From Candidatus Nealsonbacteria bacterium (GTDB taxonomy: Bacteria > Patescibacteriota > Minisyncoccia > Minisyncoccales > GWA2-38-27): DNA of 55,650 nt. A program made the translations under genes and the position numbers. Numbering within the stretch: the first letter of the stretch is position 1; every line of letters starts with the position of its first letter. The DNA is taken from contig JAUWYA010000002.1 in the NCBI GenBank assembly GCA_030616085.1, positions 1 to 55,650 on the forward strand, in the 5' to 3' direction. Of the stretch, positions 14,819 to 54,677 are shown piece after piece. Under the pieces are notes generated by a model. That model worked only from the letters and a program-made list of their open reading frames with translations, did no database searches and was not told where the DNA came from.

Positions 14819-15823
14819 CTACCTCTTTCCTTTTTTTACTAAAAAATCAGATTCCATTCTGATTTTTTTTAATAAAAACCAGGGCATTTTAAAGCCTAAA
14901 AAATAAACTGATTTAACCGCTACCTTGGAAAGAATAATTTTTGGGATAAAGAACCTTCTCATTGCTTTTTTGTATTTCAGAAAGTCAGGAAAAGCTTTTA
15001 AAAGAATTCCGGCTGCTGTTAATCCCCAAATCACTCCCCCACCAGACCAAGATTTTGTTAAGCCAATGGCATCTCCGCATAAAGTTATTAAAGGATCTGA
15101 TGGTATTATAAAGCCCTGAGGAACTATTTTTGATTCAATTCTCTTAAGAATAATTTTGTTTTTATTCAGAAATTCATCAAGAAGTATTTTAGCCTCTCTT
15201 GGATTGGCAAGTATTCCATATTCTGTTTCTTTGCCTCTCGGAATCTTCCAGATAAACCCCGTTAGAGATTTATTTTTTTTGTCTTTTTTCTTTTGTCCTG
15301 TAATCTCTAACGGGGTAAAGCCATTTTTGCAGGGCCAAGTTTCTACATAATTTTCAGAACAAGGATTGTCTAAGAATCCTAAGATACCTAATCTATATTT
15401 AGGCTCTGAAAGCCTCAAGCTTTTTCTTACAAAAGAGTTAGCTCCATCGCAGCCGATTACTCTATCATATTCTTTAGGAACTGAAGAAATATTGCTGTTC
15501 AAGATAATCTTAGCTCCCGCCCTATGAGCTAAGCCAGCTACTAATCTGTCTAACTCAGAGTGGCTCATTACAAAAAAATCCCTAGAAAACTTTACCTTTA
15601 CTGTTTTCTTAGGAAAATGCAGAAGAACGTGATCTATTCTATTTTGTATTAATTTACTGCTTTCAGGTATAAATTCTAAAATTCTTTGAGAAAAAAGCCC
15701 TGAACAAGCATTATTGCTGATTTCTTTTTTTCTTTCAAAAACAGTTATATCATGTTTTTTCTCAGAGAGCTTCCATGCTAAATATAGTCCGGAAATGCCC
15801 CCGCCGATAATCGCTACCCGCAT
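14819..15823 (-). CDS. Geranylgeranyl-reductase-like FAD-dependent oxidoreductase with a 21-aa in-frame insertion
   Basis: IIGGGISG, ACSGL, IGCDGANS, LCGDA, GGG motifs. Confidence 0.8.
   Translation of the reverse strand: MRVAIIGGGISGLYLAWKLSEKKHDITVFERKKEISNNACSGLFSQRILEFIPESSKLIQNRIDHVLLHFPKKTVKVKFSRDFFVMSHSELDRLVAGLAHRAGAKIILNSNISSVPKEYDRVIGCDGANSFVRKSLRLSEPKYRLGILGFLDNPCSENYVETWPCKNGFTPLEITGQKKKDKKNKSLTGFIWKIPRGKETEYGILANPREAKILLDEFLNKNKIILKRIESKIVPQGFIIPSDPLITLCGDAIGLTKSWSGGGVIWGLTAAGILLKAFPDFLKYKKAMRRFFIPKIILSKVAVKSVYFLGFKMPWFLLKKIRMESDFLVKKGKR
15257..15315. mobile_element. 59-bp CCCCGTTAGA MITE-like element, in frame
   Basis: TIRs CCCCGTTAGAGATT/AATCTCTAACGGGG; TAAA duplicated at 15253-56 and 15316-19; excision restores KNGFIWKIP. 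Confidence 0.9.
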
Positions 15824-15975
15824 AAAATTATTTAGAAATTAGTAATTAGTAATTAGAAATTCTTAGCTATATATCCTAAAGCAAAAGATAATAAAGAAAT
15901 TAAGAAAACTGTTATAAATAGAATTATATCACGTTTATAACGTTTGACCAATGTTTGTATTTTTGATAACATAAA

Positions 15976-16051
15976 TAAGAACCATAAGATGCTTTACATC
16001 TTAGAACCTTGATTCAGTTCACAGCGAGTTCACTGCGAGCTGCTAAGGTAT
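15976..16051 (+). repeat. Two-hairpin dispersed repeat, copy 2 (rpmA leader)
   Basis: TAAGAACC-TAAGATG/CATCTTA hairpin-GAACCTTGATTC-[insert]-GCTAAGGTAT. Confidence 0.65.
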
Positions 16052-16074
16052 AAAAAATATAATCTTGAATTAAA

Positions 16075-16347
16075 ATGGCTAAAACAAAAGCAAAAGGAGC
16101 AACAAAATTAGGAAGGGATTCCCGTCCAAAATATCTTGGTGTCAAGCTTTTTGAGGGGCAAGAAACTAAACCCGGAATGATAATTGTTCGTCAACGCGGA
16201 ACAAAGTTCTTACCTGGGGAAAATGTAAGACAAGGAAAAGACAATACTCTTTACGCAGTGAAAAAAGGCGTGGTTAAGTTTAAAACAAAACGTATAAAAC
16301 GTTTTGACGGTTCTCAACGAACAGCTAAGATCGTAAACGTAAAGTAA
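16075..16347 (+). CDS. rpmA: 50S ribosomal protein L27
   Basis: [32 protein letters not shown]. Confidence 0.97.
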
Positions 16348-16387
16348 AATAAGCTGAGCTAAGCTTTTAGAATTCCATAAGCTTAAC

Positions 16388-18070
16388 TTATTTTATACTG
16401 GTTTTAATAAACTCTCTAAACAATGGATGAGGCCTTAGGGGCCTTGATTTAAATTCTGGATGGAATTGAACAGCTACAAAGAAAGGATGATTCTTATTTT
16501 CAATTATCTCTACTAAATCTTTTTCAGGATTAATTCCAGCCATTACTAATCCATTTTTTTCTAAAATCTCTCTATAATCGTTATTTAACTCATAACGGTG
16601 CCGATGTCGCTCAGATATCATTGAATCTTTGTACACCTTAGCACTAATTGTGTTTGGTTTTATCTTGCATTTGTAAGCGCCTAATCTCATTGTTCCTCCG
16701 TATTTTCTTTCTTTCAAAAGAACTTTTTGTTCCGGCATAACATCAATTACAGCTTCTTTATTTTTTGACCCCGTTAGAGGTTTTGAAATTTCGTGTTTTT
16801 TGTTTGTCTTTTTAACCTCTAACGGGGTTGAAAACTCAGTTGAACTTGCATTTTTCAGCTTACAAACATTTCTGGCAAACTCAATTACTGCTAACTGCAT
16901 TCCCAGGCAAAGTCCTAAAAAAGGGACTTTGTTTTTTCTGCAGAATTCAATTGCTTTTATTTTTCCCTCTATTCCTCTGGTTCCAAAACCTCCAGGAATA
17001 ATTATACCATCATATTTTCTTAATTCTTTTACTGAAGCAGGATTTTTCTCATATTTCTCTGCTGATAACCAAGAAATCTTAGGTTTTCTTTTTAAAGAAT
17101 AAGCAGCATGTTTTACCGCTTCAATTACTGAAATGTAAGAATCTGTTAAAGTAAATCCTCCTGTTTTAAAGTATTTCCCAACAATACCAATTTTAACCGT
17201 TTTTTTAGAGCTCTTTATTTTATTTACAAACATCTTCCAATCTTTCATATCTTTCTTTTTTTTTGGTTTTAAGCTCAACTTTTTTAAAAGCTTACTGCCT
17301 AAATTTTCTTTTTCAAAATTAAGAGGAACCTCATAAATTGTTTCAATATCTGGAGCAGAAATAACATCTTCAGGCGCAACATTGCAGAAAACTGATATTT
17401 TCTTTTTCCTGACTTCATCCAAAGGAACTGCTGAGCGAGCCAGAATTATATTCGGCTGAATACCTGCTGAATTCAAAGTTCTAACAGCATATTGAGTTGG
17501 TTTTGTCTTCATTTCTCCAATTTTCTTTGGAATTGGCAGATAACTGACTAAAATAAAAAGCACATCTTTTGGATGGCTTAATTTCATCATTCTGGCTGCT
17601 TCCAGAAATAGCAGATTTTGATATTCCCCTACTGTTCCTCCTATTTCTACTAATATAAACTCAGACTTTGTTTTTCTTCCTGCCCGTTTAATTCTAGAAA
17701 TTACTTCATTTGGAATATCAGGAACCACTTCTACGCATTTACCATCATATTCTAAGTTTCTTTCCCTATTTATCACTGCCTGATAAACCCTGCCAGTAGT
17801 TAAATAGTTATCTGTATAAATATCTTCGTCTAGAAACCTTTCATAATTTCCCACATCCTGATCGCATTCAATCCCGTCATCAGTTACAAAAACCTCTCCG
17901 TGTTCAATAGGATTCATAGTTCCGGCATCAACATTAATATAGGGATCAATTTTAATTGCAGTAACCTTAAATCCTTTGCTTTTTAAAATTCTGCCAATTG
18001 AAGATACTGCTATCCCTTTTCCAATGCCAGACATTACACCGCCTGCGACAAAAATGTACTTCGCCACCAT
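16388..18070 (-). CDS. pyrG: CTP synthase with a 21-aa in-frame insertion
   Basis: KYIFVAGGVMSGIGKG, KIDPYINVDAGTM, GLCLGMQ, ERHRHRYE, QFHPEF; start set at MVAKY. Confidence 0.97.
   Translation of the reverse strand: MVAKYIFVAGGVMSGIGKGIAVSSIGRILKSKGFKVTAIKIDPYINVDAGTMNPIEHGEVFVTDDGIECDQDVGNYERFLDEDIYTDNYLTTGRVYQAVINRERNLEYDGKCVEVVPDIPNEVISRIKRAGRKTKSEFILVEIGGTVGEYQNLLFLEAARMMKLSHPKDVLFILVSYLPIPKKIGEMKTKPTQYAVRTLNSAGIQPNIILARSAVPLDEVRKKKISVFCNVAPEDVISAPDIETIYEVPLNFEKENLGSKLLKKLSLKPKKKKDMKDWKMFVNKIKSSKKTVKIGIVGKYFKTGGFTLTDSYISVIEAVKHAAYSLKRKPKISWLSAEKYEKNPASVKELRKYDGIIIPGGFGTRGIEGKIKAIEFCRKNKVPFLGLCLGMQLAVIEFARNVCKLKNASSTEFSTPLEVKKTNKKHEISKPLTGSKNKEAVIDVMPEQKVLLKERKYGGTMRLGAYKCKIKPNTISAKVYKDSMISERHRHRYELNNDYREILEKNGLVMAGINPEKDLVEIIENKNHPFFVAVQFHPEFKSRPLRPHPLFREFIKTSIK
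16769..16827. mobile_element. 59-bp CCCCGTTAGA MITE-like element, in frame in pyrG
   Basis: TIRs CCCCGTTAGAGGTT/AACCTCTAACGGGG; TTGA duplicated at 16765-68 and 16828-31; excision restores STEFSKNK. Confidence 0.9.
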
Positions 18071-18087
18071 TTTAAGATTATATATTA

Positions 18088-18128
18088 ATACTTTAGCGAA
18101 ACAAGGTTCTGCCAAAGGCAGGTTCTTA
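18088..18128 (-). repeat. Two-hairpin dispersed repeat, copy 3
   Basis: TAAGAACCTGCCTTTGGCAGAACCTTGTTTCGCTAAAGTAT starting at the rplI stop. Confidence 0.75.
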
Positions 18129-18572
18129 TTTCTCTTCTGTAATAATTACTTTTATTTCAGATTCTAAATTGTGCTCAAATTTAATCTTTATTGAAAATTC
18201 ACCAAGTTCTCCAATAGGCTCTGCTAAATCAATCTGCTCTTTTTTAAGTGCAAATCCCATTTCTTTTAATTTTTCAGAGATTTTCTGTGTATTTATTTTT
18301 TCAAACAATTGTTGTTCTTCTCCAACTTTAACTAGAATCATTACTTCTAGTCCATCCATGCTTGAAGCTATTTTTTGAATCTCTTTTAATTCTTCTTCAG
18401 CTTTTTGCTTTTCAACTTCTTTTTGCTTTTCCACCCATTCCAAAACCTGCTTCGTTGCAAGCTTAGCAAGTCCTTTTGGAATTAAAAAATTCCTGGCATA
18501 ACCATCTTTAACATCTTTGATTTCGTATTTCTTTCCTACATTTTCTACATCTTGAAGAAGAATAATACGCAT
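18126..18572 (-). CDS. rplI: 50S ribosomal protein L9
   Basis: [11 protein letters not shown].....[16 protein letters not shown]. Confidence 0.97.
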
Positions 18573-18583
18573 AATTAAAATAT

Positions 18584-18706
18584 AATTTCTAAATCCTAAT
18601 TACTAATGTCAAATAAAATATCAAATTATTAAATGTCTAATTTCTAATTTTTTGACATTTGTCATTTGTTATTTGGAATTTTGTTAGAAATTAGATATTA
18701 GAAATT
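18584..18706. repeat. Degenerate heptamer array arranged as an inverted repeat
   Basis: AATTTCT AAATCCT AATTACT AATGTCA... mirrored by ...AGAAATT AGATATT AGAAATT; similar tracts at ~15830-15865 and ~45597-45681. Confidence 0.6.
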
Positions 18707-18718
18707 TGTTATTTTATT

Positions 18719-19891
18719 CTACTCTATTTCTTTTATTATTTCAATAGCTTTATTAAGTTGTGGATCGCGGTCCTGCTCATAATCTTCTTCTGTCATCTCT
18801 ACTTTAATGTCTGGCTCTAAACCTTTATCAGTAATTAGTTCACCGTTAGGTGTCAGCCAATTAGCTATTGTGATTTTTAAGCTTGAACCATCTGTTAAAC
18901 TTTCTAACTTCTGGACTGATCCTTTTCCAAAAGAAGTTTCCCCAATCATTTTTATGCCGCGATTATCTCTAAGAGCTGAGGCTAAAATTTCTGAAGCAGA
19001 AGCTGAACCCTGATTGATTAAAATGACTAATGGATAATCTGAAAACTTGGAATTGCCCTTAGCTTTGTAAATCTCTTGTTCTCTTTTCCCGCCAAAGTCT
19101 TCAATAACCACTACTTGCCCTTTTTCTAAAAACCAGCCGGCAATATCTTGAGCCCTTTCTAAATATCCTCCAGGATTACCCCTCAAGTCTAAAATTATCT
19201 TTTCAGCAGGACTTTTTAAAATCTCGGCTGCTATTTCTTTGAAATCTTGATCAATTTTTTCAGAAAAATGATAAAGTTTGATATATGCAATGTTTTCTTC
19301 TTTCAGCTCCAATTTCAAAGAAGGAACCTCAATGACCGCTCTTTTAATAATAAAATCTTCAGAACTATCCCATTCATCCCGCATAATAGTTAATGTTACT
19401 TCTGTTCCTTTTGGTCCGCGAATAAGAGTTACCGCTTCCTCAATAGTTATATCCATGGTTGAAACGTCATCTATCTTTATTATTTTATCGCCTGGCCTAA
19501 GACCAGCTCTTTGAGCAGGCGTTGCTTCTAAAGGAGCAATAACTTGAAGCTGTCCTTCCCTTATTCCAATTTCCATTCCAACTCCTTCAAAACTGCCTCC
19601 TACATCTTCTAAGAATCTCTTAGTATCTCCTGGATTAAAAAATATAGTATATGGGTCTCCTATTGATTCTACCATACCGGAAATGGCTCCGTAAACTAGC
19701 TTTTGAATATCAATATCTCCGGGATTAACATATTCTTGCTGAATTTTATGCCAGGCCTCCCAGAAAAGAGAAAAATCAAGATCTTCTGGAGCACAAAATT
19801 TACAAACAACCGTACTCTTCCCAATCAAAAACCCAACACCGAAAATAACAAAAACAAAAGTTATTAATAGAATTTTCTTAAATAATGACAT
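18719..19891 (-). CDS. ctpA: Carboxy-terminal processing protease (S41A, PDZ)
   Basis: GDPYT, GVGMEI (PDZ), LDLRGNPGGYL, GSASASEI, SFGKGSVQ. Confidence 0.92.
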   Translation of the reverse strand: MSLFKKILLITFVFVIFGVGFLIGKSTVVCKFCAPEDLDFSLFWEAWHKIQQEYVNPGDIDIQKLVYGAISGMVESIGDPYTIFFNPGDTKRFLEDVGGSFEGVGMEIGIREGQLQVIAPLEATPAQRAGLRPGDKIIKIDDVSTMDITIEEAVTLIRGPKGTEVTLTIMRDEWDSSEDFIIKRAVIEVPSLKLELKEENIAYIKLYHFSEKIDQDFKEIAAEILKSPAEKIILDLRGNPGGYLERAQDIAGWFLEKGQVVVIEDFGGKREQEIYKAKGNSKFSDYPLVILINQGSASASEILASALRDNRGIKMIGETSFGKGSVQKLESLTDGSSLKITIANWLTPNGELITDKGLEPDIKVEMTEEDYEQDRDPQLNKAIEIIKEIE

Positions 19892-19892
19892 T

Positions 19893-20037
19893 CCCCGTAG
19901 AAGAATTTCGAATGAATATTATCAATATAATATATTTACAAAACTCTTTAAATTATAAGTAATTTATTTTTACTGCCCTGTAGTTTAATTTTTAGGTATT
20001 TTCAAAGAAAATACCTTTTCGAAATTTCTCTACGGGG
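19893..20037. mobile_element. 145-bp variant CCCCGTAGA MITE-like element at the ctpA start codon
   Basis: Imperfect TIRs CCCCGTAGAAGAATTTCGAA/TTCGAAATTTCTCTACGGGG; CATT duplicated (19889-92, 20038-41) and contains the ATG. Confidence 0.8.
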
Positions 20038-20167
20038 CATTATATCTTTATAGCAAAATATAAAACCATGGTCAACAAAAAAAAGGAGCTGTGCTCCCTG
20101 ATAGTTTTACTTCTCCATCAATTTTTTGATTTTTAAGATAGGTCAGGCCTATCCCAATTTATTTACG

Positions 20168-20365
20168 CTATTTCCTTTTCATTCTTGCAATACTGTAACC
20201 GATTTGTTGCCCAAGAAATAATCCAATCATAAATTGAGTGTAATTTACTTCGCTTCCAATTACTTTTTCAATTACATAAACAAGGACGGTCATAGATAGC
20301 AAAAGAATTGAAACAAAATTCTTGCCTGTAACAGTATATATTGTCTTGCGATACCATTTCGACAT
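20168..20365 (-). CDS. Small two-TM hypothetical protein
   Basis: 65-aa ORF with two hydrophobic segments; two further short ORFs upstream (~20370-20516, 20526-20654). Confidence 0.45.
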   Translation of the reverse strand: MSKWYRKTIYTVTGKNFVSILLLSMTVLVYVIEKVIGSEVNYTQFMIGLFLGQQIGYSIARMKRK

Positions 20366-20664
20366 AATTTTAATTATTTAACTTTTTATATAACATTCTA
20401 GGATAGCCCATTTCTTTTTGAATCTCATATTCAATGTTTAAACTATTCAAAAAGTCAGAGCAAGCTTTTCTTGTTTTGTCTACGCCTCCAAAATCTTTCT
20501 TTGCCTCAACTTCCATAAATTCTAATCAATTTTTGGATTTTAATCTCTTTATTCGAACACGATGAGTAAAACCATCTTTTTTACTTTTGCGCTCTTTGTA
20601 AATTAGTGGCCCAATTCTTTTTGATTTTATTAAAGGTTTTTTAACTTTAGCCATATTTATCTTT

Positions 20665-21228
20665 TCATATTATTTTATTCAATTTTTCTTTATAACTTTC
20701 CATGAGCATATTTCTGCCAGAATAATTCCAGTAACGAATATCCTGTTCAATAAAAAACCATTTTGAAGCTTTAAAGATTAAATCCATTGGGAAACCTGGT
20801 AAGTTATTATATATACTATAATCAATTGTTTTATCATCTGGCTCATGGCAATTATAAATCTTCTCCAGGTCTCCCAAGATTTTCTTGCTTAAGACACTAT
20901 TTTTATTAATCTTGAGTTTTATGTCATTTATAAAATCTTCGTGTTTTGGATTATCCTTACCATTTGAGAATTTATAATTTTCTACGTGAATCAAAAAATC
21001 AAACCCTAATTTATTAAAAGCTGGTCTTGTGATATAGACCCGGTCGCCAGAATTTAACGTTTCAACTATATATTTATATTTTGTAGATAATTCGCCTATA
21101 CCCTTACCAGCCTTCTCTTTAGTAAATTCTTTGATAGCTATTTTTCTTAAATTATTTCTATTCAGCTCAATATTTTGAGTAATATTATCCAATTTAACAT
21201 TTATTTTTATCTCTGGATAAACAGTCAT
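20665..21228 (-). CDS. Putative restriction endonuclease (partner of the MTase)
   Basis: 4-bp ATGA overlap downstream of a DNA MTase; no motif securely recognised. Confidence 0.45.
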   Translation of the reverse strand: MTVYPEIKINVKLDNITQNIELNRNNLRKIAIKEFTKEKAGKGIGELSTKYKYIVETLNSGDRVYITRPAFNKLGFDFLIHVENYKFSNGKDNPKHEDFINDIKLKINKNSVLSKKILGDLEKIYNCHEPDDKTIDYSIYNNLPGFPMDLIFKASKWFFIEQDIRYWNYSGRNMLMESYKEKLNKII

Positions 21229-22082
21229 GAAATTTTATTTTTTAAGTTTCTATCTAATTCTTCAAACCTTTTTATTGATAAATCCAAATATTTTTTCTCT
21301 GTATCAATGCCAATGAATTTTCTTCCGAAAAGATAAGCGGCAAGTCCTGTTGTAGAACTTCCGGTAAATGGATCGAGTATTAAATTGTTTCTGTTGGTGC
21401 TTGCCAAAACAATTCTTTTTAATAATTCTTCTGGTTTTTGTGTTGGGTGTTTGCTGAATTTCTTTTCAATTCTTTGAGGCGTACTTATTGCCCAAACACT
21501 ACGCATTTGTTTTCCTTTTTCATGTAAAATTTCATTAAAATCTACGCTTCCGCATTTTTTACACTTAAAAGATTTTTTATAATTATTGCCCCAATCAACC
21601 ATTGTTTTGTAGTTGAAGGTGTGCTTTGCTTTTTTATCTTTTCTGGCCCAAATCAATGTTTCGTGGCTTGCTGTAAGAAAACGGCAGCTTAAATTTGGAG
21701 AAGCGTTTGGCTTGAACCACGCAACATCATTTAAAATATGAAATCCTGCTGTTTGCAAAGCAAGTCCGCATTGATAAATAGAGTGATAAGTTCCGCTTAC
21801 CCAAATACTTCCATTGGGCTTCAATACCTTTCTGCAAGCATTAATCCAATTACGATGAAACTCAAAATTTTCTTTCAGCCCATTACCTAAATCCCAATCC
21901 CCTTTTTTCACGCTGACCATTCTTCCATTATGACAAGTAAAAGTTCCATTTGAGAGAAAATAAGGAGGATCAGCAAAAATCATATCAAAATGATTTTTTG
22001 GAAATTGTTTTAGAACTTCCAAGCAGTCCCCTTTATATAATTCAAACCTATCTTTTTTATAATAAGGTTTTAGTGTTGTCAT
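21225..22082 (-). CDS. Beta-class N6-adenine/N4-cytosine DNA methyltransferase (DpnA-like)
   Basis: DMIFADPPY, WFKPNASPN, HPTQKP, ILDPFTGSSTTG. Confidence 0.93.
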   Translation of the reverse strand: MTTLKPYYKKDRFELYKGDCLEVLKQFPKNHFDMIFADPPYFLSNGTFTCHNGRMVSVKKGDWDLGNGLKENFEFHRNWINACRKVLKPNGSIWVSGTYHSIYQCGLALQTAGFHILNDVAWFKPNASPNLSCRFLTASHETLIWARKDKKAKHTFNYKTMVDWGNNYKKSFKCKKCGSVDFNEILHEKGKQMRSVWAISTPQRIEKKFSKHPTQKPEELLKRIVLASTNRNNLILDPFTGSSTTGLAAYLFGRKFIGIDTEKKYLDLSIKRFEELDRNLKNKIS

Positions 22083-22111
22083 TATTCTATTTTAACTCTT
22101 CTTTAACCTAA

Positions 22112-22321
22112 AATCAAATCACTCCTCAAGAAGCGACCTTTGAGTTGCGTAGAGGTCCGACCTCTCCCGAGAGGTACGGACCTCCCGACGAATATAATTG
22201 TGAGGATTTTGAAACGTGGGAACAAGCCCAAGAAGCTTATGAATCCTCTGGAGGAGTTGAAAATGATATCCACCGCCTTGATCGCGACAACGACGGCATC
22301 TCTTGCGAAGCATTGCGATAA
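22112..22321 (+). pseudogene. 5'-truncated Excalibur calcium-binding domain fragment
   Basis: Frame reads YNCEDFETWEQAQEAYESSGGVENDIHRLDRDNDGISCEALR* (DxDxDG..CE); no ATG; palindrome at ~22152-22184. Confidence 0.8.
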
Positions 22322-22377
22322 AAAAAACTACGAGAACTGCTCTCGTAGTTGCCTTTCAATAATAAATATGCTGTACT

Positions 22378-23871
22378 TTATTTTCTCAACGCCCTTCTTA
22401 TTGCTTCAAGAAAGATATTAGTGTTTTCTTTTCTAATTGAACGAAGCTTTATTTTTCTGGCAAAAGAAACAAATCTTTCTTTGCTTGGAATTGTTTCTTC
22501 AATAATTGACTTTTTTTCAACTGGTTTTTCCTCTTCAGGAGGCATATATTCTTCTGGCGGCTTACCTTCCTGAAATTCACCTTTGTATGGTTCTTCCTCA
22601 AATTTCATTTCTCCTTCAGGAGGTCCATGATACTCCTGCTCCTGCTGTTGTTGCTGCTGTTGTTCCTGTTCCTGCTGCTGCTGCTGTTGTTGTTGCATTC
22701 CTTTTATCATTTCTTCTGCTTCTTCTTGAGTCATAAAGCCCTGTTCTACGCCGAATTTAATACATTCTTCAGCATGATCTGGACCTTTACAATAATTCTC
22801 ACATTCTTCTTTACCCATACAGCCGCCGGGTCCGCCCTGCATCATCATTTCTTTTTCTTCTGGAGAAATCATTCCCATTTTTTCTCCAAATTCCACACAC
22901 TCTTCCATATTATCTGGGTTTTGGCAAAAAGTATCACATTCTTCCTTGCCCTGACATCCACCAGGACCGCTAGTAAGACCCATTTCAGCCATTTTCTTGG
23001 CATTTTCTGCTTCTTCTTCAGTCATAAAACCAGCTTTTACAGCAAAGTCAATGCATTCTTGCATATGAGACAGATCATTGCAATAAGCATCGCATTCTAC
23101 TTGTCCTTTACAGCCGCCTGGACCTCCAAATAAACCAGCTTCAAGCATTTTTTCAGCTTTTTCTATTTCTTTTTTTGGCATAAGGCCATATTTCTTAGCA
23201 AATGCTATACATTCTCTCATATGGGATGCTTCATCGCAATAAGCATCACAGGCCTCTTTTCCGCAGCATCCACCTGGCGAATCTCCACCAGTTTTTCTTA
23301 TCATAATTGCTTCTTCTGCAGAAATAAGGCCAGCTGCCTCAGCAAAACTAACGCATTCTTCCATATGCGCTGGTCCACAGCAATAAATATCACATTGTGT
23401 CTTGCCGCGACAATTCGGATGCTTTGCTCCTTTTTTAATTCCTGATAACACTTTTTTCGCTTCTTCAAGCTCTTCTGGAGAAAGAACGCCTGCTGCTTCA
23501 GCAAAAGCAACACACATTTCCATATGTTCTGGTTCAGAGCAATAAATATCACATTCTGCTTTGGTATTGCAAGGAGGCGGCGTTATTCCTTTTTTAATAG
23601 CAGCGAGCACCTTTTTAGTTTCTTCAAGTTCTTCTGCAGGTATTAAATTATGTTTTTCAGCAAAAATAATACATTCCTCAAGATGAGAAATGTCATCGCA
23701 ATAAATCTTACATTCTTCTCTATTTGCGCAATTCCCAAGCTCAAGAACTGGATAATTAATTTCATCTTGAGCTAAAACCAAGACTGCGAAAAGACCAAAT
23801 AAAGATAAAGATATTATAATAAAATATTTCTTCACCCCGTTAGCCCCATTAAGATTTTTTTTATTTTTCAT
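22378..23871 (-). CDS. Secreted protein with seven Cys-rich repeats and a Gln-rich linker
   Basis: Signal peptide KKYFIIISLSLFGLFAVLVLA-Q; 7x C-x5-C-x3-C-x4-H/N-x3-C..F; extreme N-terminus derives from an inserted element. Confidence 0.85.
   Translation of the reverse strand: MKNKKNLNGANGVKKYFIIISLSLFGLFAVLVLAQDEINYPVLELGNCANREECKIYCDDISHLEECIIFAEKHNLIPAEELEETKKVLAAIKKGITPPPCNTKAECDIYCSEPEHMEMCVAFAEAAGVLSPEELEEAKKVLSGIKKGAKHPNCRGKTQCDIYCCGPAHMEECVSFAEAAGLISAEEAIMIRKTGGDSPGGCCGKEACDAYCDEASHMRECIAFAKKYGLMPKKEIEKAEKMLEAGLFGGPGGCKGQVECDAYCNDLSHMQECIDFAVKAGFMTEEEAENAKKMAEMGLTSGPGGCQGKEECDTFCQNPDNMEECVEFGEKMGMISPEEKEMMMQGGPGGCMGKEECENYCKGPDHAEECIKFGVEQGFMTQEEAEEMIKGMQQQQQQQQEQEQQQQQQQEQEYHGPPEGEMKFEEEPYKGEFQEGKPPEEYMPPEEEKPVEKKSIIEETIPSKERFVSFARKIKLRSIRKENTNIFLEAIRRALRK
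22633..22695 (-). repeat. CAA/CAG/GAR poly-Gln coding microsatellite
   Basis: Encodes QQQQQQQQEQEQQQQQQQEQE. Confidence 0.85.
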
Positions 23872-23990
23872 GATAATTTTTAGATTATTGTTATTTCTAA
23901 CCCCGTTAGAAATTTTCTTACTATTTTAAATTATAAATTATAAAATATTTATGCCTTCTTAAAATATAATTTCTAACGGGGCTAACGGGG
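23835..23990. mobile_element. Nested CCCCGTTAG MITE-like elements
   Basis: Outer element with TTCA duplication (23831-34/23991-94); inner 81-bp element 23901-23981 with CTAA duplication, inserted into the outer right TIR. Confidence 0.85.
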
Positions 23991-24010
23991 TTCATATTTT
24001 TATTTGCGTT

Positions 24011-24271
24011 TTACTCAAATGGATTTTGGTATGCCTCATCAAAAGGATTAACAATCTCATCAAACGGATTGGTTGAAGGCATGTTTTCCATTGGACTTGA
24101 CACTATATCTCCTGCTTCTACTTGAGCAGCTGCCCTTCCTATTTCTACTCCTTCCTCATAACCAACTTTATGTCCGTAATAATAAGCTCCGCCTGCTGCA
24201 GCGACAATTACAATCACAAAAATCAGAATTATTAATAATTGTTTGTTATTTACCCCGTTAGAAATTGTCAT
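24011..24271 (-). CDS. Small single-TM hypothetical protein
   Basis: Hydrophobic N-terminus, NPF repeats at C-terminus; MTISNGV start comes from a MITE. Confidence 0.7.
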   Translation of the reverse strand: MTISNGVNNKQLLIILIFVIVIVAAAGGAYYYGHKVGYEEGVEIGRAAAQVEAGDIVSSPMENMPSTNPFDEIVNPFDEAYQNPFE

Positions 24272-24321
24272 AAATTTATTTAGCCCCGTTAGGGATTATT
24301 TTAATAAAATTTCTAACGGGG
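24253..24321. mobile_element. 69-bp CCCCGTTAGA MITE-like element
   Basis: TIRs CCCCGTTAGAAATT/AATTTCTAACGGGG; TTTA duplication; internal extra half-TIR at 24284. Confidence 0.85.
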
Positions 24322-24425
24322 TTTATATTATCTATAATATTTTATTATACCATTATAAAAAAAGCTTTCTCTGTGGAAAACTTTTTTCCCGTACAATATC
24401 CTAAATTAGAAAATAAAGAAATTTA

Positions 24426-26432
24426 TTATTTGAACGAATTCACTATATCAATGAATGTATCTTTGCCCACATAAGGAATTTCGTCAATCTGTTGTAGGCT
24501 GGTGAACTTACCAAGTTCCTTTCTTCTTTTGATAATCCTGTTAGCTGTTGTTCGTATCAAAGATATTCCTTTTTTCTGGGTTTTCCCGTATCCACCTTTA
24601 TAATACCCTATGCCAAGAGTATCTTCCACTTTTTTACATAATGTCTTAGAATCTCCGACCTTGTTTACAAATCTCAAAACCTTTTGTGCAAGACGGAAGG
24701 AAACATTCTTAGATGTGAATGACTTGTTTAGACAATCAAGAGCCCAGTCAAAGCCATCTATCCTTGCATCTTCAATACTGTTATAAGGCACGATATTCTC
24801 AGGGTTTAAGTTTTTAACTGCTGGACAGGAGCTTTTATGGACGAGGTGACTGGACTTTACAGCGATGTATTGGACCTGCTTGATGTTAAGAGAATGAATT
24901 AGCAGAGTAACGCTCCCTATTATTTTCCCACTGATCTTCTGTGAAATCCTGAGAGGGTATACTTTATCGTTTTGAGCGTTCCCTGACAGTTTAACCTCTA
25001 CTGTAGATTGATAACCGTTCCCTGGAGGAATTTCAAGATTTTTTATTATGCCAACGCCTTTTTTCTTGATGTAAAACCAGTAATTGGTACGGGATGTTCT
25101 GCTTGTGCGTTCGTACATGTTTTTAAGAGTTGTCTTGCCTTTTTTGAACATATTCCTTCGAATCTTGATGCCAATAGAGCTTCCAGCCGGCAGGGCTTTT
25201 GCATCAAGTTCTATGTCGCATATTGTCTTGCTGGGAAATCCTTGGATTCTGAAGTTAGTCAAAGATAAACCATCAGGTACAGAATTTACCATTCTTATGT
25301 TTAGGTTGGCTATGTTGTTATGGTCTCTGACAAATTTCCAGTAATCTCCACCGGTATGAATACCGCTGGTATCTGGATGTGGGTCTCCACTGCCAGCAAT
25401 AGATGCTATGACACAAAAATGATGTATGTTTCCTGGGTCAGGAACATCTTTCCACACAATTACATCCTTTTTACTGGAAACTTTATAACCGTGCGCAGGA
25501 ACATTTTTGAGGATTGTTTCCCCAATGAACTCCCATGATGATGGTACACAAGATGTGGTTAGCGGCGCAAAGTATACTTTTGCATGTACATCTGATGATG
25601 TATTTGACTTATTGCTTACTCTTAAGTAAATGTGGTTATCATTTCCTATTTCCACTTCATTTTTTCCGTAATTCTTTGACATATCACCAAACTTTTTCTC
25701 CGGGTTTGGCACAGGATCCAAAGTAATGATAATGTCCGGACTCAAAGCTAAACTTCCTTGTGAAGGTTCTTTTCCCTTGTCTTTAAGATTATCACGGATG
25801 TAAACATCTACAGAAGGGCATCTATTATGCGTAATGATGCTCATGCCGCTTTGCTTTTTATAAAGACGTAATCGATCATGGTTATATTTGAAAATCCAAT
25901 GCAAACTGAAACGATCTTTGTAAGCCTGTTTAAGAATAGCTTCACATTGTTCAATAGTCTTACCGGCAACCATAGCGTCTATATATGACCAGATACATTC
26001 TTTAAGTGGCATGTATTCTCCCAGTATTACATAAACCGGTTCGGTATAACCTAACCATGAATAGCAGCATTTTTTAACAGCAGTCTGACCTACGCAACTA
26101 TTACCACTGGTTGAACACGCGAAAGTGTAAACATGGAGTTCTTTGGTCAAATCTTCAGCATTGGTTTTAGTGATAACAGGTGTCACTGCGTTATTCTTTT
26201 CACCATAAAACGCCCCACAACTTCCGTGGTCAAAACATATAGCAACCTTTTTGGTTCTCTTGTTGCCATAATTCAACCAGTAATTTACATTTGCAGGGGT
26301 AGCTTGAGCATCGTTTAGGTCAGTTACGGTATACCCTTTGCTTTTCAGATGAGATTTTAAACCTTTACCGATCCAATTAGTCGCTACCGTCGCTGGGTCA
26401 CATTTATTCCTAATGATTAGAATATCTACCAT
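24426..26432 (-). CDS. Multidomain protein: putative clan CD (caspase/gingipain-like) peptidase domain, DVYIRDN beta-domain, C-terminal HhH-like region
   Basis: CFDHGS...YTFACS His-Gly/Ala-Cys spacing; DVYIRDN..D.G.EP..SPDI; FTSLQQIDEIPYVG. Confidence 0.55.
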   Translation of the reverse strand: MVDILIIRNKCDPATVATNWIGKGLKSHLKSKGYTVTDLNDAQATPANVNYWLNYGNKRTKKVAICFDHGSCGAFYGEKNNAVTPVITKTNAEDLTKELHVYTFACSTSGNSCVGQTAVKKCCYSWLGYTEPVYVILGEYMPLKECIWSYIDAMVAGKTIEQCEAILKQAYKDRFSLHWIFKYNHDRLRLYKKQSGMSIITHNRCPSVDVYIRDNLKDKGKEPSQGSLALSPDIIITLDPVPNPEKKFGDMSKNYGKNEVEIGNDNHIYLRVSNKSNTSSDVHAKVYFAPLTTSCVPSSWEFIGETILKNVPAHGYKVSSKKDVIVWKDVPDPGNIHHFCVIASIAGSGDPHPDTSGIHTGGDYWKFVRDHNNIANLNIRMVNSVPDGLSLTNFRIQGFPSKTICDIELDAKALPAGSSIGIKIRRNMFKKGKTTLKNMYERTSRTSRTNYWFYIKKKGVGIIKNLEIPPGNGYQSTVEVKLSGNAQNDKVYPLRISQKISGKIIGSVTLLIHSLNIKQVQYIAVKSSHLVHKSSCPAVKNLNPENIVPYNSIEDARIDGFDWALDCLNKSFTSKNVSFRLAQKVLRFVNKVGDSKTLCKKVEDTLGIGYYKGGYGKTQKKGISLIRTTANRIIKRRKELGKFTSLQQIDEIPYVGKDTFIDIVNSFK

Positions 26433-26732
26433 TTAAATCTCCTCTAACCATTTTTTAATATTACTTTTTACTTCAAGAAATTCTTTATCAACAGTTGCAA
26501 TACCTGTTTTCTCTTCTTTCTTAAGCTCCTTGAGAACTTCCCGAGCTGTAAATGTTTTTCCAGTAGTTATGTTCATGGCTGGTAAATCAGCCTCTTTAGG
26601 ATGTTCATTTACCCACTTTTCAAGCTTCTCTATGGGTCTTTTTTTCTGGGACCCTAACTTTTTTTGTTTATTAGATTTCATCCTTGATATGAAAGTCTTT
26701 TTTGAATTGAATACGACAAGTTTTAAACGCAC
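26433..26732 (-). CDS. Hypothetical protein coupled to the downstream gene (start uncertain)
   Basis: Stop abuts the ATG at 26432; GGAG at the 3' end could serve as its SD. Confidence 0.55.
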   Translation of the reverse strand: MRLKLVVFNSKKTFISRMKSNKQKKLGSQKKRPIEKLEKWVNEHPKEADLPAMNITTGKTFTAREVLKELKKEEKTGIATVDKEFLEVKSNIKKWLEEI

Positions 26733-27021
26733 TTATCTAAAACTTGCTTAAAAATCGACCTTTTGACAAAATAATTGTGTAATCATAAATACTCTATGGA
26801 CACACGATTTCGAACAACGAGAATTGAATGCGGCCTAATGTATAATCTTGAACGCCAACTCAAGATTCGTGGTTTCAGGTTTCAGCCAGAAAATCATTAA
26901 AGCCTATTTACATTATAACAGAAAATTCTTAAATTATACACGAAGTTATCCACAGGTAAGTTTTTGCCAATATCCTATCTGTTTTGCGTTAAACTCGGTT
27001 TAACGCAATCTTTTAAAATTA

Positions 27022-27450
27022 TCACCCGATTTTGCTTAAATCTCCATTTAATTCAACGCCCATCATTGCTTTTATTTCATCAGTATATGGAACGTCTTCT
27101 GGAATAGGATTCAATAAAAATACTTTTTTATTGTTGACATGAGCAAAACCGATTTCCATTAAAGTGTTTCCTCCTATATAATTTTTAATTCCATTCTTGT
27201 CAAAGTTGCAAACAAGAATAGCATCGCTATCATTAATTAACTTATGCCAAGCTTTAATATAATCGTATTTCTTTTTTATTTCTGCGGTCTCTACCCCGTT
27301 AGCCATATCAATTAATTCTTCTGCTGTTCCATCAGCAACTTTATACATATCTTCTTGCATCAAAGGAATATGGCCTTGTTTTTTCAATTCTTTGCAAATT
27401 TCAACTAATTCCTTTGCAAATTTTATGCTTGCGCAAACTGTTATTTTCAT
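27022..27450 (-). CDS. Nucleoside deoxyribosyltransferase-like (Rossmann) hypothetical protein
   Basis: MKITVCAS, SDAILVCN, YIGGNTLMEIGFA. Confidence 0.65.
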   Translation of the reverse strand: MKITVCASIKFAKELVEICKELKKQGHIPLMQEDMYKVADGTAEELIDMANGVETAEIKKKYDYIKAWHKLINDSDAILVCNFDKNGIKNYIGGNTLMEIGFAHVNNKKVFLLNPIPEDVPYTDEIKAMMGVELNGDLSKIG

Positions 27451-27451
27451 A

Positions 27452-27883
27452 TTAAATTATGTTTAATTTCTTAAACCAGTGTTCCCAAACTCGTTCTAAT
27501 TTTAACTCTTTGATTTCGTTTACAGCATACCATCCAATAGACTTTGTTTCAATATAATTCTGTTTAATTTCTCCTGACACATTACATTCAAACAAATACC
27601 AATAATGGACATCTATTCCCATACTGCATTGATTCCAATCTATCTCTTCTTCAAAAAGAACCTTATAACTATCTATCTTCAAGCCGCTTTCTTCTTCAAC
27701 CTCACGTTTCAATGCTTGTATTTTATCTTCATCTTCATCAATATGTCCAGCAAGACCAGCAAAACCTAATGGTGGTTTTACTCGGTCAATCAGAAGATAC
27801 TTACCATCTTTTTTAATCAATGCTCCTATTGAATAGTGCATTAACTTACCATCTTTACTTTTGGCTTGCTTTAAGTTGCCCAT
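27452..27883 (-). CDS. Nudix hydrolase
   Basis: AGHIDEDE...ALKREVEEESGL Nudix box. Confidence 0.9.
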   Translation of the reverse strand: MGNLKQAKSKDGKLMHYSIGALIKKDGKYLLIDRVKPPLGFAGLAGHIDEDEDKIQALKREVEEESGLKIDSYKVLFEEEIDWNQCSMGIDVHYWYLFECNVSGEIKQNYIETKSIGWYAVNEIKELKLERVWEHWFKKLNII

Positions 27884-27896
27884 ATTGCATAAACAA

Positions 27897-28310
27897 TTAA
27901 ATGGTTTTCAGAAACTCATCTATAGTTTTATATCTCTCATTAAATATCAAATAAAGAGTTTCTGGTTTTTCAGGTTCGCCAATCAGAATAAGTGGTTTCC
28001 CTAAACCGTATGCAACGCCAGCCTCCATATGAACTGAATTGCCAGCTGGTAAAAGCATTATTACTTTCTCGGCATTTTTTAGACCCCTTAAATCCTTATC
28101 AAATATCTCCTTGTATCTACTATTATTGAAAAAATCCTTTACACTTTCAAACGCCTTCATCTGTTCTTCTGGATGTGCATCTGGATTATTTGGGTCAACA
28201 GGTGTATCGCAAAAATTGTAGCAGGTCTTTCCCTTTTCTTGTAATTTTTTTACAAGTAAATCACAATTATCTTTATTTCTAAATTTTGAGATAATAGTAT
28301 AATCAGTCAT
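27897..28310 (-). CDS. Nucleoside 2-deoxyribosyltransferase-like protein
   Basis: IFDKDL..L..A, LLPAGNSVHMEAGVAYGLGKP. Confidence 0.7.
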   Translation of the reverse strand: MTDYTIISKFRNKDNCDLLVKKLQEKGKTCYNFCDTPVDPNNPDAHPEEQMKAFESVKDFFNNSRYKEIFDKDLRGLKNAEKVIMLLPAGNSVHMEAGVAYGLGKPLILIGEPEKPETLYLIFNERYKTIDEFLKTI

Positions 28311-37402: not shown

Positions 37403-37468
37403 CCCCGTTTAGAGATAATACGCCTTTGGCGTATGACGGTTACTTATGATAATCTATCTCTAACGGGG
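37403..37468. mobile_element. 66-bp CCCCGTT(T)AGA MITE-like element
   Basis: TIRs CCCCGTTTAGAGATA/TATCTCTAACGGGG; TCAA duplication; internal ATACGCC-TTT-GGCGTAT hairpin. Confidence 0.85.
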
Positions 37469-49397: not shown

Positions 49398-49415
49398 AAT
49401 TTGCTTTAAAAACCA

Positions 49416-50356: not shown

Positions 50357-50853
50357 TTTTGAGCTTTTAAAATTAACTTTTGATCATCTATATAAGATAT
50401 CTTCGCCCCTGTTCTTTTCAAAAGTATTGAACATTTCTTTGGAGTATTTGGAGATAATATAATACTCAATTTATGCCTTTCTATTAAAAATTTGACTAAA
50501 CCGGCATAATCTCCATCGCTTGTAATAATAACTGCTTTTTAAAATTTATTCTCATAGGTATCACAAACTGCTTGTAATACAAAATCAGCATCGCAATTAC
50601 CTTTTGGCTTTCCTGTTCCGTCATATATAATTTCTTTAAAAATAAGAGTAAATCCTGACTTTTGCAGATATGTGTAAAGATTTTTGTATTTTGAAATCAA
50701 ACCAATAAAAATATAAGCTTTTTTTACGTCATATTTTTCAGATAACCAAATTCTAAATCTTTTATAATCCAAAGACCATCTAAGTTCTTTAATCGCCTTA
50801 TCTAAATTTGCTCCGTCTATATAAGCGAAATTATTACTTTCTTTTTTCTTCAC
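50323..50853 (-). pseudogene. NYN-domain gene with an in-frame premature stop
   Basis: AYIDGANL...KGNCDAD...ENKF*KAVIITSDGDY...EKAPNADRTA*; TAA at 50539-41. Confidence 0.85.
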
Positions 50854-50983
50854 AAATTTTATTTCTCAATTAATTTTTTATTCTCTATATATTCAATTTA
50901 CTCCTTTTTTAGCTTAAAATCAAGCTAAAAATAATGACTGAAGCCTCAAAGCCAAGCTTCCTAATGGAAGCTCGGCTTTTTGA

Positions 50984-51025
50984 CGACAGCGACGGCATCC
51001 CCTGCGAAGCATTGAGATAAAAAAA
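50984..51025 (+). repeat. Second Excalibur-tail copy
   Basis: 38/42 identical to 22285-22326; encodes DSDGIPCEALR*. Confidence 0.8.
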
Positions 51026-51112
51026 GCATAAAAAAAGAGGTGCTGACCATTAAAAATCAACGCCTTTTTATATCTGGCAGTATCGTCTGGCGGTATCGGA
51101 TACCGCCAAGCC

Positions 51113-52522: not shown

Positions 52523-52766
52523 TGTTTTATTATTGCAGCTTACGCTGCATAATTACGGCATTCGGTTGAAAAAGAAAAATAAATTTTTCTTTTTCTCCCT
52601 TGCTTGTAATTATAACATAAAAGATGTTAAAATGTTAATAAAGATAAAGAATAAAAAGTGAAGAAAACAAATTTTTAAATCATGGGGATTGGGCGCGGCG
52701 AGTCCGCCAAAGGCGGGCGAGAAGGGGGCTTGATTTAAAAATTTTGTTTTCAAAGCTTATTACTTT

Positions 52767-54677
52767 ATGTCTAATCGTCTCACAAATTTAATCGCTGGCC
52801 TTCTACTTATTATAGTATTCCTGGTCTGTTTTTTCAGTATGAAAGGCGATTCAGCCACAATGGATGAAATGTCTCATATCCCGGCTGGCTATTCTTATCT
52901 AACGCAGAAAGACTTTCGTATTAACCCGGAGCATCCTCCATTGGTAAAAGACCTGGCTGCTCTTCCACTTCTATTTTTAGATCTAAACTTCCCGGAAGAC
53001 CATAGCTCCTGGGCTGAGGGAACTAATGAACAATGGACGTATGGTTCTCAATTCCTATACTATTCAGGAAATAATCCTGATCAGATTATATTTTGGGCCA
53101 GAATCCCAATGATTCTGCTTTTATTATTCTTAGGCTGGTTCATATTCCGCTGGACAAAAGAATTAGCAGGAAACAAAATTGCTCTTTTAGTATTAACTCT
53201 ATTTTCTTTCTCCCCTACTTTCTTAGCCCATGGAAGATTGGTAACTACTGATGTTGCTGCAGCTTTGGGAGTGGTTATGGCTTCATATTTCTGGATAAAA
53301 TTCCTAAGAAGCCCGACAAAAAAGAATATAATCTTTGCAGGCCTGATATTTGGAGTATCAATGCTTTTAAAGTTTTCTTTAGTTCTGGTTATCCCTCTCT
53401 TTGGCATAATCACTGTAATTTATGCTTGGTTGAACCCCGTTAGAGGTTATAAAGGCAAAATGGGAGCACAAAGCGAAAAAACCTCTAACGGGGTGAAATT
53501 CCAAGAAAAAGACTTTAAACAACGTTTCTTAGAAGTTTTAAAATACATTGGCATGGCTCTAATTGCAGGAATAATTGGAATGATTCTTATCTGGCCAGTT
53601 TATCAATTCCATCTTTTAAATTATCCAGCTGAACGCCAAGTGCGGGATTCTGAGATTACTTTAGCTTCAGGCGGTATAAATATTACAGAAGGTATTTGCA
53701 TCTGGATGGCTGATAAACCTGGACTAAGACCTTATGGCCATTACTTTCTAGGGCTTCTAATGGCTAGCCAAAGGGTATCTGGAGGCAATACTGTATATTT
53801 TCTTAATGAAATTTCAAATAGAGGCTGGTGGTATTATTTCCCTGTTGTTTACCTTTTAAAAGTTCCTTTAGCTTTTCATATTTTATCTTTAATTGCTCTT
53901 TTGTATGTATTCTGGCTAATTATAATTAAAAGGCCTTTTTGGCAGAATATCTTTCACCGAATAAAAGAATGGATAAAGAATCATTTTACAGAATTTTCAA
54001 TGCTGGTGTTTTTGGCAATTTATTGGATCACTTCTATAACCGGAGCTCTTAATATTGGTGTAAGGCATATTTTACCTGTTTTTCCTTTCATATATATATT
54101 AGTTGGTTTGGCAATAGCAGCATGGATAAACCCCGTTAGAGATTACAAGAGCGATGAAGAAAGGCAAATCAAACAAATCTCTAACGGGGTAAAAAGAATA
54201 TCCAGCGCGCTTTGGAAAAAAATAGCAGTTTCTCTAGTTTTAGTGCTTTTGGCCTTTTACATAATCTCTTCTCTCTTAGTTTGGCCCCACTATCTAACCT
54301 ATTATAATGAAATTGCCAAAGGTCCTAAGAATGGATACAAATATGCAGTGGATTCAAATTATGACTGGGGCCAGGATTTGAAAAGATTAAAAGAATGGGT
54401 AGATGAAAATGAGATTGAGAAAATTTATCTTAGTTATTTTGGCGGAGGCAATCCTGAATATTATCTAAAGGAAAAATATGCTCCTTGGTGGGGTGATCGT
54501 GATAAAAAAGAACTTCCAGAAGGAAGTTACTTGGCAGTCTCTTTAACATTGCTTCAAGGAGGCAAAGGAACTGCTGTAGCCGGCTTTGACCAATCAACCG
54601 GCTATTATCGCTGGCTTGACGATTATGAACCAATAGCTCGAATCGGCAACTCAATATTCATTTATTATATTGACTAA
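52767..54677 (+). CDS. GT-C (ArnT/PMT-like) membrane glycosyltransferase with two 21-aa in-frame insertions
   Basis: TMDE..H, NPEHPPL.K, LVTTD, NIGVRH, DSNYDWGQD. Confidence 0.88.
   Translation: MSNRLTNLIAGLLLIIVFLVCFFSMKGDSATMDEMSHIPAGYSYLTQKDFRINPEHPPLVKDLAALPLLFLDLNFPEDHSSWAEGTNEQWTYGSQFLYYSGNNPDQIIFWARIPMILLLLFLGWFIFRWTKELAGNKIALLVLTLFSFSPTFLAHGRLVTTDVAAALGVVMASYFWIKFLRSPTKKNIIFAGLIFGVSMLLKFSLVLVIPLFGIITVIYAWLNPVRGYKGKMGAQSEKTSNGVKFQEKDFKQRFLEVLKYIGMALIAGIIGMILIWPVYQFHLLNYPAERQVRDSEITLASGGINITEGICIWMADKPGLRPYGHYFLGLLMASQRVSGGNTVYFLNEISNRGWWYYFPVVYLLKVPLAFHILSLIALLYVFWLIIIKRPFWQNIFHRIKEWIKNHFTEFSMLVFLAIYWITSITGALNIGVRHILPVFPFIYILVGLAIAAWINPVRDYKSDEERQIKQISNGVKRISSALWKKIAVSLVLVLLAFYIISSLLVWPHYLTYYNEIAKGPKNGYKYAVDSNYDWGQDLKRLKEWVDENEIEKIYLSYFGGGNPEYYLKEKYAPWWGDRDKKELPEGSYLAVSLTLLQGGKGTAVAGFDQSTGYYRWLDDYEPIARIGNSIFIYYID
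53435..53493. mobile_element. 59-bp CCCCGTTAGA MITE-like element, in frame
   Basis: TIRs CCCCGTTAGAGGTT/AACCTCTAACGGGG; TGAA duplication; encodes NPVRGYKG...SNGV. Confidence 0.9.
54131..54189. mobile_element. 59-bp CCCCGTTAGA MITE-like element, in frame
   Basis: TIRs CCCCGTTAGAGATT/AATCTCTAACGGGG; TAAA duplication; encodes NPVRDYKS...SNGV. Confidence 0.9.

Follow-up and report, generated by a model that had tools for sequence, protein, structure and literature searches.

The 55,650-nt contig JAUWYA010000002.1 of the Candidatus Nealsonbacteria assembly GCA_030616085.1 (hereafter the window; contig C10 of the source genome G000, which comprises 740 kb in 35 contigs at ~33% G+C) carries four 59-bp inverted-repeat units, each situated inside a long open reading frame (ORF). 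Their hosts are a FAD-oxidoreductase-like gene, the CTP synthase gene pyrG, and a PMT_2 glycosyltransferase gene that contains two of them (Table 1), and the conceptual translation runs through every unit. The end motif CCCCGTTAG, allowing at most one mismatch, occurs 19 times in the window, compared to 2.77 expected and a maximum of 8 in 100 shuffles. Each unit is bounded by inverted 14-bp arms, CCCCGTTAGAG(A/G)TT and AA(T/C)CTCTAACGGGG, with a direct 4-bp repeat immediately outside them; unit and duplication together add 63 bp, or 21 codons, to an open gene. Two copies are read as TPLE...LTG and two as NPVR...SNGV. A sequence-only reading of the window had described these four copies with the same arms, duplications and gain in length, all of which are present in the DNA.

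That the units are insertions is apparent from related genomes, namely G001 and G002, which belong to the same genus as G000, together with G010 and G016. At each of the four positions, congeners or other relatives possess the 4-bp target once and lack the element, so that the insertion claim withstood the orthologue comparison. The site at 15257 is empty in G001, G002 and G010 (a single TTTA in the coding orientation), as is the pyrG site at 16769 in the same three genomes; the 53435 element is missing from G002 and G016, and the 54131 site is empty (TAAA once) in G001 and G016. The end motif is likewise absent from the pyrG loci of 19 of 19 relatives, and the pyrG insert forms an additional stretch in the glutamine amidotransferase domain when compared to the solved CTP synthase PDB 1vco.

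The family has the attributes of a miniature inverted-repeat transposable element (MITE): the 59-bp form lacks coding capacity, its repeats are terminal and inverted, and its target duplications are matched by empty sites. Gene-less members span 29 to 139 bp, and they share their ends with a 278-bp gene-carrying element whose gene encodes a GIY-YIG nuclease, not a known transposase. These comparisons suggest that the window sites are separate, fairly recent insertions of a gene-less, hairpin-ended element. We assign a probability of roughly 0.8 to the whole explanation developed below, in which a gene-less 59-bp member persists through a survival filter, its copies are translated as loops, and the nuclease is the likely mobiliser.

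Table 1. Positions of family members in the window, with their duplications and host or neighbouring ORFs
Feature	Position	Strand	Duplication	ORF	Remarks
59-bp element	15257-15315	-	TAAA (15253-15256 and 15316-15319)	14819-15823(-), FAD-oxidoreductase-like, P0001	in frame; reads TPLEITGQKKKDKKNKSLTG
59-bp element	16769-16827	-	TTGA	16388-18115(-), CTP synthase, pyrG	in frame, within GATase domain; reads TPLEVKKTNKKHEISKPLTG
59-bp element	53435-53493	+	TGAA	52767-54677(+), PMT_2 glycosyltransferase	in frame; reads NPVRGYKGKMGAQSEKTSNGV
59-bp element	54131-54189	+	TAAA	52767-54677(+), PMT_2 glycosyltransferase	second copy in this ORF; reads NPVRDYKSDEERQIKQISNGV
156-bp composite	23835-23990	-	TTCA	22378-23871(-)	on the ORF start; gives new ATG and N-terminus
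81-bp copy	23901-23981		CTAA, drawn from the arm		nested in right arm of the 156-bp copy
69-bp copy	24253-24321	-	TTTA	24011-24271(-)	holds the start codon; extra inner left end at 24284
66-bp copy	37403-37468	.	TCAA	intergenic	G+C-rich inner hairpin; 1-nt indel in left arm
Lone left-end match	27294-27302	+		27022-27450(-)	no partner

Length, frame and orientation across the genome

With one mismatch allowed, the 10-mer end occurs 201 times in G000, and its exact form 158 times compared to 0.43 expected from base composition. These 201 ends resolve into 84 left-right pairs and 33 unpaired ends, the lengths of the pairs forming a cluster at 59 bp (26 pairs) and smaller ones at 29-31, 58, 61-69, 79-82, 94-97 and 278 bp. 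Genes were called using our own simple longest-ORF caller, which yielded 807 ORFs that make up 90% of the genome. Wholly ORF-internal pairs account for 33 of the 84 (39%), and in 32 of these 33 the length plus 4 is a multiple of three (lengths of 29, 35, 59, 62, 65 and 80 bp), although a pair counted as inside when an open frame ran across it, a definition that excludes frame-breaking copies by construction. The sole exception is a 64-bp copy within a 64-residue ORF. The fair comparison is consequently provided by the intergenic pairs (n = 24), which are split 8/8/8 by length plus 4 modulo 3, and by the 58-bp copies, none of which (0/4) lies inside an ORF. For the 27 pairs at ORF edges the split is 10/4/13, while the 26 copies of 59 bp comprise 21 in ORFs, 4 between genes and 1 at an edge. 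The length bias that the sequence-only reading anticipated for coding copies is thus found genome-wide. Its observation that the TAG of one arm and the TAA of the other share a frame is accurate as well, except that nothing about it is special to 59 bp; it is arithmetic for any length L for which L+4 is divisible by three. As a refinement, we regard the constant length as a property of a subfamily combined with a survival filter, with no length-fixing mechanism.

Orientation is equally regular. The purine-rich strand is the sense strand in 21 of 21 genic 59-bp copies in G000, and the same is true of 16 of 16 that seven other genomes carry in ORFs of 150 aa or more. Stop codons do not dictate this bias, since in 24 of 26 copies the opposite, pyrimidine-rich strand offers one or more open frames. 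Orientation follows the gene, not the replichore: although the window has a negative GC skew throughout, the purine-rich strand is the minus strand in its first two 59-bp copies and the plus strand in the last two, in agreement with their genes. Intergenic copies equal genic ones in strand asymmetry, and the asymmetry is therefore a property of the element itself. On the sense strand the interior consists of 58% A and 7% T, leaving it nearly without stop codons, and 87% of the residues it encodes are K/R/E/D/Q/N/S/T/G/H while 6% are hydrophobic. Both open frames are used, PVR...SNGV in 13 and PLE...LTG in 8 of the 21 genic copies. The earlier remarks that the A-rich strand is the coding strand (4/4 window copies), that both open frames are used, and that interiors have diverged between constant arms (pairwise identity of 0.52 compared to 0.93 genome-wide) all stood. 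Three apparent pyrimidine-sense ORFs were encountered in relatives; two were rejected as spurious or antisense ORFs, while the third (L120, position 1006) shares its flanks with one of them. A further genic copy in a relative is the in-frame NPARD...ISNGV of a small heat-shock-like protein of G016 (L129:644-1240, minus strand). A frame rule, stop-free reading and fixed orientation would be needless if the inserts were removed from RNA, which leads us to infer that they are translated.

The 21 genic 59-bp copies are distributed over 18 ORFs. A MurD-like ligase, a Wzy_C/TPR protein and the PMT_2 protein each hold two; single copies occur in CTP synthase (PyrG), trigger factor (Tig), NAD-dependent DNA ligase (LigA), alanyl-tRNA synthetase (AlaRS), UvrA, topoisomerase I (TopA), ClpB, MnmA, PRPP synthetase, an HtrA-like protease, a capsule-synthesis protein, the FAD-oxidoreductase-like protein, a DUF6938 protein and two ORFs without a Pfam match. 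RsmH additionally hosts a 62-bp copy. Three ORFs with two copies exceed the 0.40 same-gene pairs expected (P 0.008), and the two MurD copies are mutual nearest relatives, suggesting local hopping. In an AlphaFold2 model of PyrG built with 19 orthologues (predicted template modelling score of 0.82), the fold is confident on both sides of the insert, and the predicted local distance difference test score (pLDDT) drops below 50 at model residues 416-438, which correspond to the insert, a drop that is partly expected given that these residues face a gap in all other alignment rows. The 21-residue loops are probably disordered, and the host sites would be tolerant surface loops.

The target and the age of the copies were likewise examined across G000. 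Perfect 4-bp duplications flank 62 of the 84 pairs, and 58 of the 62 have the form TNNA, compared to 10% of genome 4-mers. No sequence information extends beyond the duplicated 4 bp, and exceptions such as CAAG and CCCG indicate that the duplication is really 4 bp in length. G000 contains 67 exact-end pairs compared to 0-16 in related genomes. An nhmmer profile of the 26 59-bp copies retrieved one further, decayed copy (C1:61515-61573) and otherwise only known ends, which gives the G000 copies a young appearance. For 8 of these 26 copies the nearest relative of the interior is in another genus; together with the 52% identity among interiors, this argues that their diversity predates the insertions and is common to genera.

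Site use was also compared across genera by means of 22 59-bp copies taken from seven relatives. For 6 of the 22 the flanks adjoin in G000, meaning that the site is empty there, and for 2 of the 22 the site is occupied in G000 too. One of these is in trigger factor, where a 59-bp copy occupies the same TAAA in both G000 and G004 within flanks that are only ~72% identical, and where the insert is lacking in 29 other family genomes, both congeners of G000 included. The other is in RsmH, in which the same site is filled in G000 (62 bp) and G047 (59 bp), a length difference that is a multiple of three, and is empty in 28 others, congeners of both included. Shared ancestry of these copies was considered and rejected on account of the 29 and 28 insert-free genomes, as dozens of precise losses are far less parsimonious than two independent gains. 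Independent insertions in different genera thus appear to have struck one and the same residue in trigger factor, and likewise in RsmH, which is new here. As the genome offers roughly 74,000 TNNA sites, random choice is very unlikely to have produced such a coincidence; the alternatives are that very few positions in proteins accommodate the loop and that targeting extends beyond four bases. In the trigger factor of G001 (L148), an unrelated 24-residue insertion lies a few residues downstream of the site occupied in G000.

The gene-carrying member and its nuclease

The sequence-only reading proposed a search for a transposase with the same ends. A gene-carrying element with these ends does exist; what it encodes is a GIY-YIG nuclease, not a classical transposase. 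The 278-bp copy at C1:61168-61445 and at least four more carry an ORF of 86 residues, three being cut by contig ends, and this nuclease is the only gene found between family ends. Residues 1-68 of the protein match Pfam GIY-YIG (PF01541, E 2.7e-16); its best solved relative is UPF0213 BH0048 (PDB 1zg2, E 7.6e-8), and an NCBIfam search returned just a sub-threshold intron-endonuclease match. All 278-bp copies lie on ATGAA start codons, such that the TGA within the duplication terminates the nuclease ORF and the final arm base restores a GTG or ATG to the host gene.

Relatives of the nuclease number 431, as confirmed in a scan of species-representative genomes. The best 80 of the 431 share 69-90% identity with it and represent Patescibacteria, Omnitrophota, Planctomycetota, Nitrospirota, Desulfobacterota, Clostridia, Bdellovibrionales and Elusimicrobiota; almost all of these 80 are flanked by (C/T)CCCGTTAGAG...CTCTAACGGG(G/A), the right arm coding for the C-terminal LSLTG of the nuclease. 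The best match, a Candidatus Nealsonbacteria metagenome-assembled genome (L021), encodes a protein that is 88-90% identical and has the flanks of the G000 copy at C26:3059-3336, which therefore looks to have been shared vertically between close species. Among 60 relatives, repeat pairs and nuclease occur together in 14, repeats alone in 6, the nuclease alone in 9 and neither in 31 (odds ratio 8, p 6e-4, with related genomes that are not independent samples). Taken together with the shared ends, this association makes the 86-residue GIY-YIG nuclease the likely mobilising enzyme.

The closest published system linking an enzyme of this type to repeats is Ssn/NTS. As described in the available portion of Chenal 2025 (PMC11893778), Ssn is a single-domain GIY-YIG protein of ~94 residues that cuts single-stranded DNA beside hairpin repeats flanking its own gene; the authors remark on the insertion sequence (IS)-like layout of NTS-ssnA-NTS and mention many such repeats in Rickettsia and Wolbachia. 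Common to both systems is a single-domain GIY-YIG protein of ~90 residues tied spatially to hairpin repeats, which number in the hundreds for Ssn/NTS. They differ in that complete 20-50-nt hairpins flank the gene there, whereas in G000 it is enclosed by the two arms of a single long-range inverted repeat, and in that 39% of pairs are located in ORFs here compared to 2% of NTS in N. meningitidis. Target duplication, empty sites and in-frame copies are features of the present family, and none of them is described in that portion of the article; the 4-bp duplication and the empty sites indicate transposition here, unlike Ssn/NTS as described.

Proposed mechanism, alternatives and related systems

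In the mechanism that we propose, integration takes place at T-N-N-A with duplication of these 4 bp, which would produce the gain of 21 codons. With the TAG and TAA of the arms as the sole stops, and with both in one frame, two frames remain open. In a genome that is ~90% coding, persistence within a gene would require a length plus 4 in threes, the purine-rich strand as sense, and a tolerant surface loop as the site; surviving copies would be translated as K- and E-rich, probably disordered 21-residue loops. The stem formed by the ends, in single-stranded or extruded DNA, may be what the nuclease recognises, by analogy with the hairpin repeats recognised by Ssn.

Several points weigh against this explanation. 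GIY-YIG nucleases, being hydrolases, are not known to join DNA; the origin of a 4-bp duplication is left unexplained. A nuclease match is missing in 6 of the 20 repeat-bearing relatives, and G002 lacks any exact-end pair despite encoding a nuclease of 90% identity. Genes for a Y1 transposase and for rve integrases are present in the genome. The case for translation and retention of the 63 nt and 21 residues is drawn from sequence, and the definition of ORF-internal copies and the alignment gap behind the low pLDDT, both noted above, count on the same side.

These Y1 and rve genes form the basis of one alternative, namely that another enzyme, such as the IS200/IS605-type Y1 transposase, a REP-type tyrosine transposase or an rve integrase, moves the repeats and that the GIY-YIG gene is cargo. 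A 139-residue ORF at window positions 102-521(+) matches Y1_Tnp (IS200/IS605-type) with 127 bits at 129-494, two weaker Y1_Tnp matches lie elsewhere, and there are three rve matches in G000; DDE_Tnp_1, DDE_Tnp_4 and DDE_3 gave no match in that genome. According to Chenal 2025 (PMC11893778), DNA hairpins are substrates of HUH Y1 enzymes, which are also connected with REP repeats. However, the end motif was not found near any Y1 or rve gene of G000, and the same ends bound the nuclease ORF in almost all of the best 80 loci, where the right arm even codes for its C-terminus. IS200/IS605 elements, moreover, make no target duplication. We consider this alternative unlikely, although it is the strongest of those weighed here.

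Somewhat less probable is the view that the hairpins are kept for a host function, such as pausing translation, providing an RNase site or controlling incoming single-stranded DNA in the manner of Ssn. The contrast between arms that are 93% and interiors that are 52% identical in pairwise comparison would fit such a role, as would the covariation of arm position 12 with its partner (A-T 16, G-C 9, G-T 1) and the modulation of Neisseria transformation by Ssn/NTS (Chenal 2025, PMC11893778). The arm figure is inflated by the near-perfect ends required for detection, and a maintained function accords poorly with window copies that are missing from congeners, with loads that vary from 0 to 67 among 61 related genomes, and with the recovery of just one extra decayed copy, which points to young rather than maintained copies. 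We attach marginally less weight again to removal of the inserts, either from mRNA or through hairpin-aided precise DNA excision between the 4-bp repeats, which would leave proteins mostly unaffected. The RNA of the four window units is predicted to fold into a stable 15-bp stem (-22.7 to -28.7 kcal/mol, z -6.5 to -7.5), the patchy occupancy of trigger factor and RsmH could stem from a single old insertion that was then precisely lost many times, and one sample has an allele without the 160 bp at 23831-23990. RNA excision would impose no rule of frame, stops or orientation, yet all three hold, which speaks against the RNA-level removal that the sequence-only reading had raised as a possibility; at RsmH the in-frame lengths of 62 and 59 bp show change in steps of three, and two gains account for the pattern far more parsimoniously than losses in 28-29 other genomes would. 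That the 21-residue segments are ancestral and merely resemble repeats by coincidence is very improbable. No point in its support was found, and it is refuted by the precise empty sites of congeners at all four positions and by the 158 exact 10-mer ends where 0.43 are expected.

With regard to insertion into proteins, the closest analogues of the 59-bp element are the Rickettsia palindromic elements (RPEs), palindromic repeats found in frame in unrelated housekeeping genes (Ogata et al. 2000, 2002, as summarised in the available part of the review PMC10969869). Both are short palindromic units that are read as extra, fold-compatible peptide; at ~100-150 bp, and in an alphaproteobacterial symbiont, RPEs differ from the 59-bp unit of G000, the two being compared by description and not by sequence. 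The analogy drawn in the sequence-only reading holds for behaviour (21 genic 59-bp copies in frame in 18 ORFs). The G000 family differs in its clear 4-bp TNNA duplication and its GIY-YIG-coding relative, and our literature search found no paper linking RPEs with GIY-YIG. Bacterial MITEs, as covered in the same part of PMC10969869, resemble the family in being small, gene-less and numerous, with inverted ends, target duplication and occasional in-frame fusions. The partner gene here encodes a nuclease, whereas known MITEs stem from DDE-transposase insertion sequences. The QMITEs of Coxiella are reportedly an example of bacterial MITEs. IS200/IS605 and REP/RAYT elements are also hairpin-ended and, like the present family, may be processed in single-stranded form by an enzyme of very small size; those systems use HUH tyrosine transposases and duplicate no target, in contrast to the perfect duplication at 62 of 84 pairs in G000. 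Literature searches yielded no account of the family ends, nor of any GIY-YIG element that combines inverted repeats with a target duplication, although the supplementary lists of SRM-rich genomes and Ssn homologues in Chenal 2025 might include this clade.

A broader reading, which we offer tentatively and consider less likely than not, is that a self-contained 278-bp transposon driven only by the 86-residue GIY-YIG nuclease has given rise to a stop-free, strand-asymmetric 59-bp derivative pre-adapted to coding sequence, and that this derivative repeatedly adds 21-residue loops to essential proteins of candidate phyla radiation bacteria, at the same residue across genera. Under this reading, the convergence could reflect homing-like targeting beyond TNNA or very few permissive protein sites, and RPEs may be the same kind of GIY-YIG/Ssn-linked system. 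If the nuclease moves the elements, the gene-carrying form would rank with the smallest known autonomous mobile elements and would employ an enzyme type not known to drive bacterial transposition. The 59-bp derivative would illustrate how selfish DNA persists in a ~90% coding genome, as a harmless surface loop that is translatable in two frames. Among the altered core enzymes are CTP synthase, DNA ligase, topoisomerase I, UvrA, ClpB and AlaRS, with consequences for annotation, phylogenetic markers and structural modelling of candidate phyla radiation genomes, and the reuse of sites across genera would provide a natural map of insertion-tolerant loops.

Other copies and variable intervals of the window

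The remaining window copies are summarized in Table 1. Five non-coding copies had been reported not to add multiples of three; those of 156, 81, 69 and 66 bp were located and indeed none of them does so, whereas the fifth, of 145 bp, was not located in the window. The partnerless end match at 27294 is possibly a chance occurrence or a remnant. Longer members sit exactly on ATG(A/G) starts, where they supply a new ATG and a short N-terminal extension; genome-wide, 18 non-59-bp pairs occupy start codons, 13 of them with an in-frame internal ATG. A subfamily of 65-69 bp, represented by the 66-bp window copy and by C1:45913, C31:35182 and C28:36815 of G000, lies between genes and has a terminator-like, G+C-rich inner hairpin.

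Sequencing runs were compared through assembled contigs. The two RNA runs from the source study yielded no sequence over window positions 14000-28000, and no RNA data set was found to cover 14500-18200. A contig of run X1 skips positions 23831-23990, that is 160 bases or 156 + 4, with 4 letters shared at the joint. It represents an allele in the probable source sample from which the start-codon copy is missing. At 19911-20019, several X1 and X5 contigs have other short sequences, some of them hairpin-like, in place of ~105 bases, and the interval looks like a strain-variable intergenic cassette. Finally, the summed depth of X1 contigs over 17736-18202 is ~137 and exceeds 1200 near 18113, compared to 12-36 elsewhere, which suggests that this 5' segment of pyrG may be shared with many organisms or repeated.

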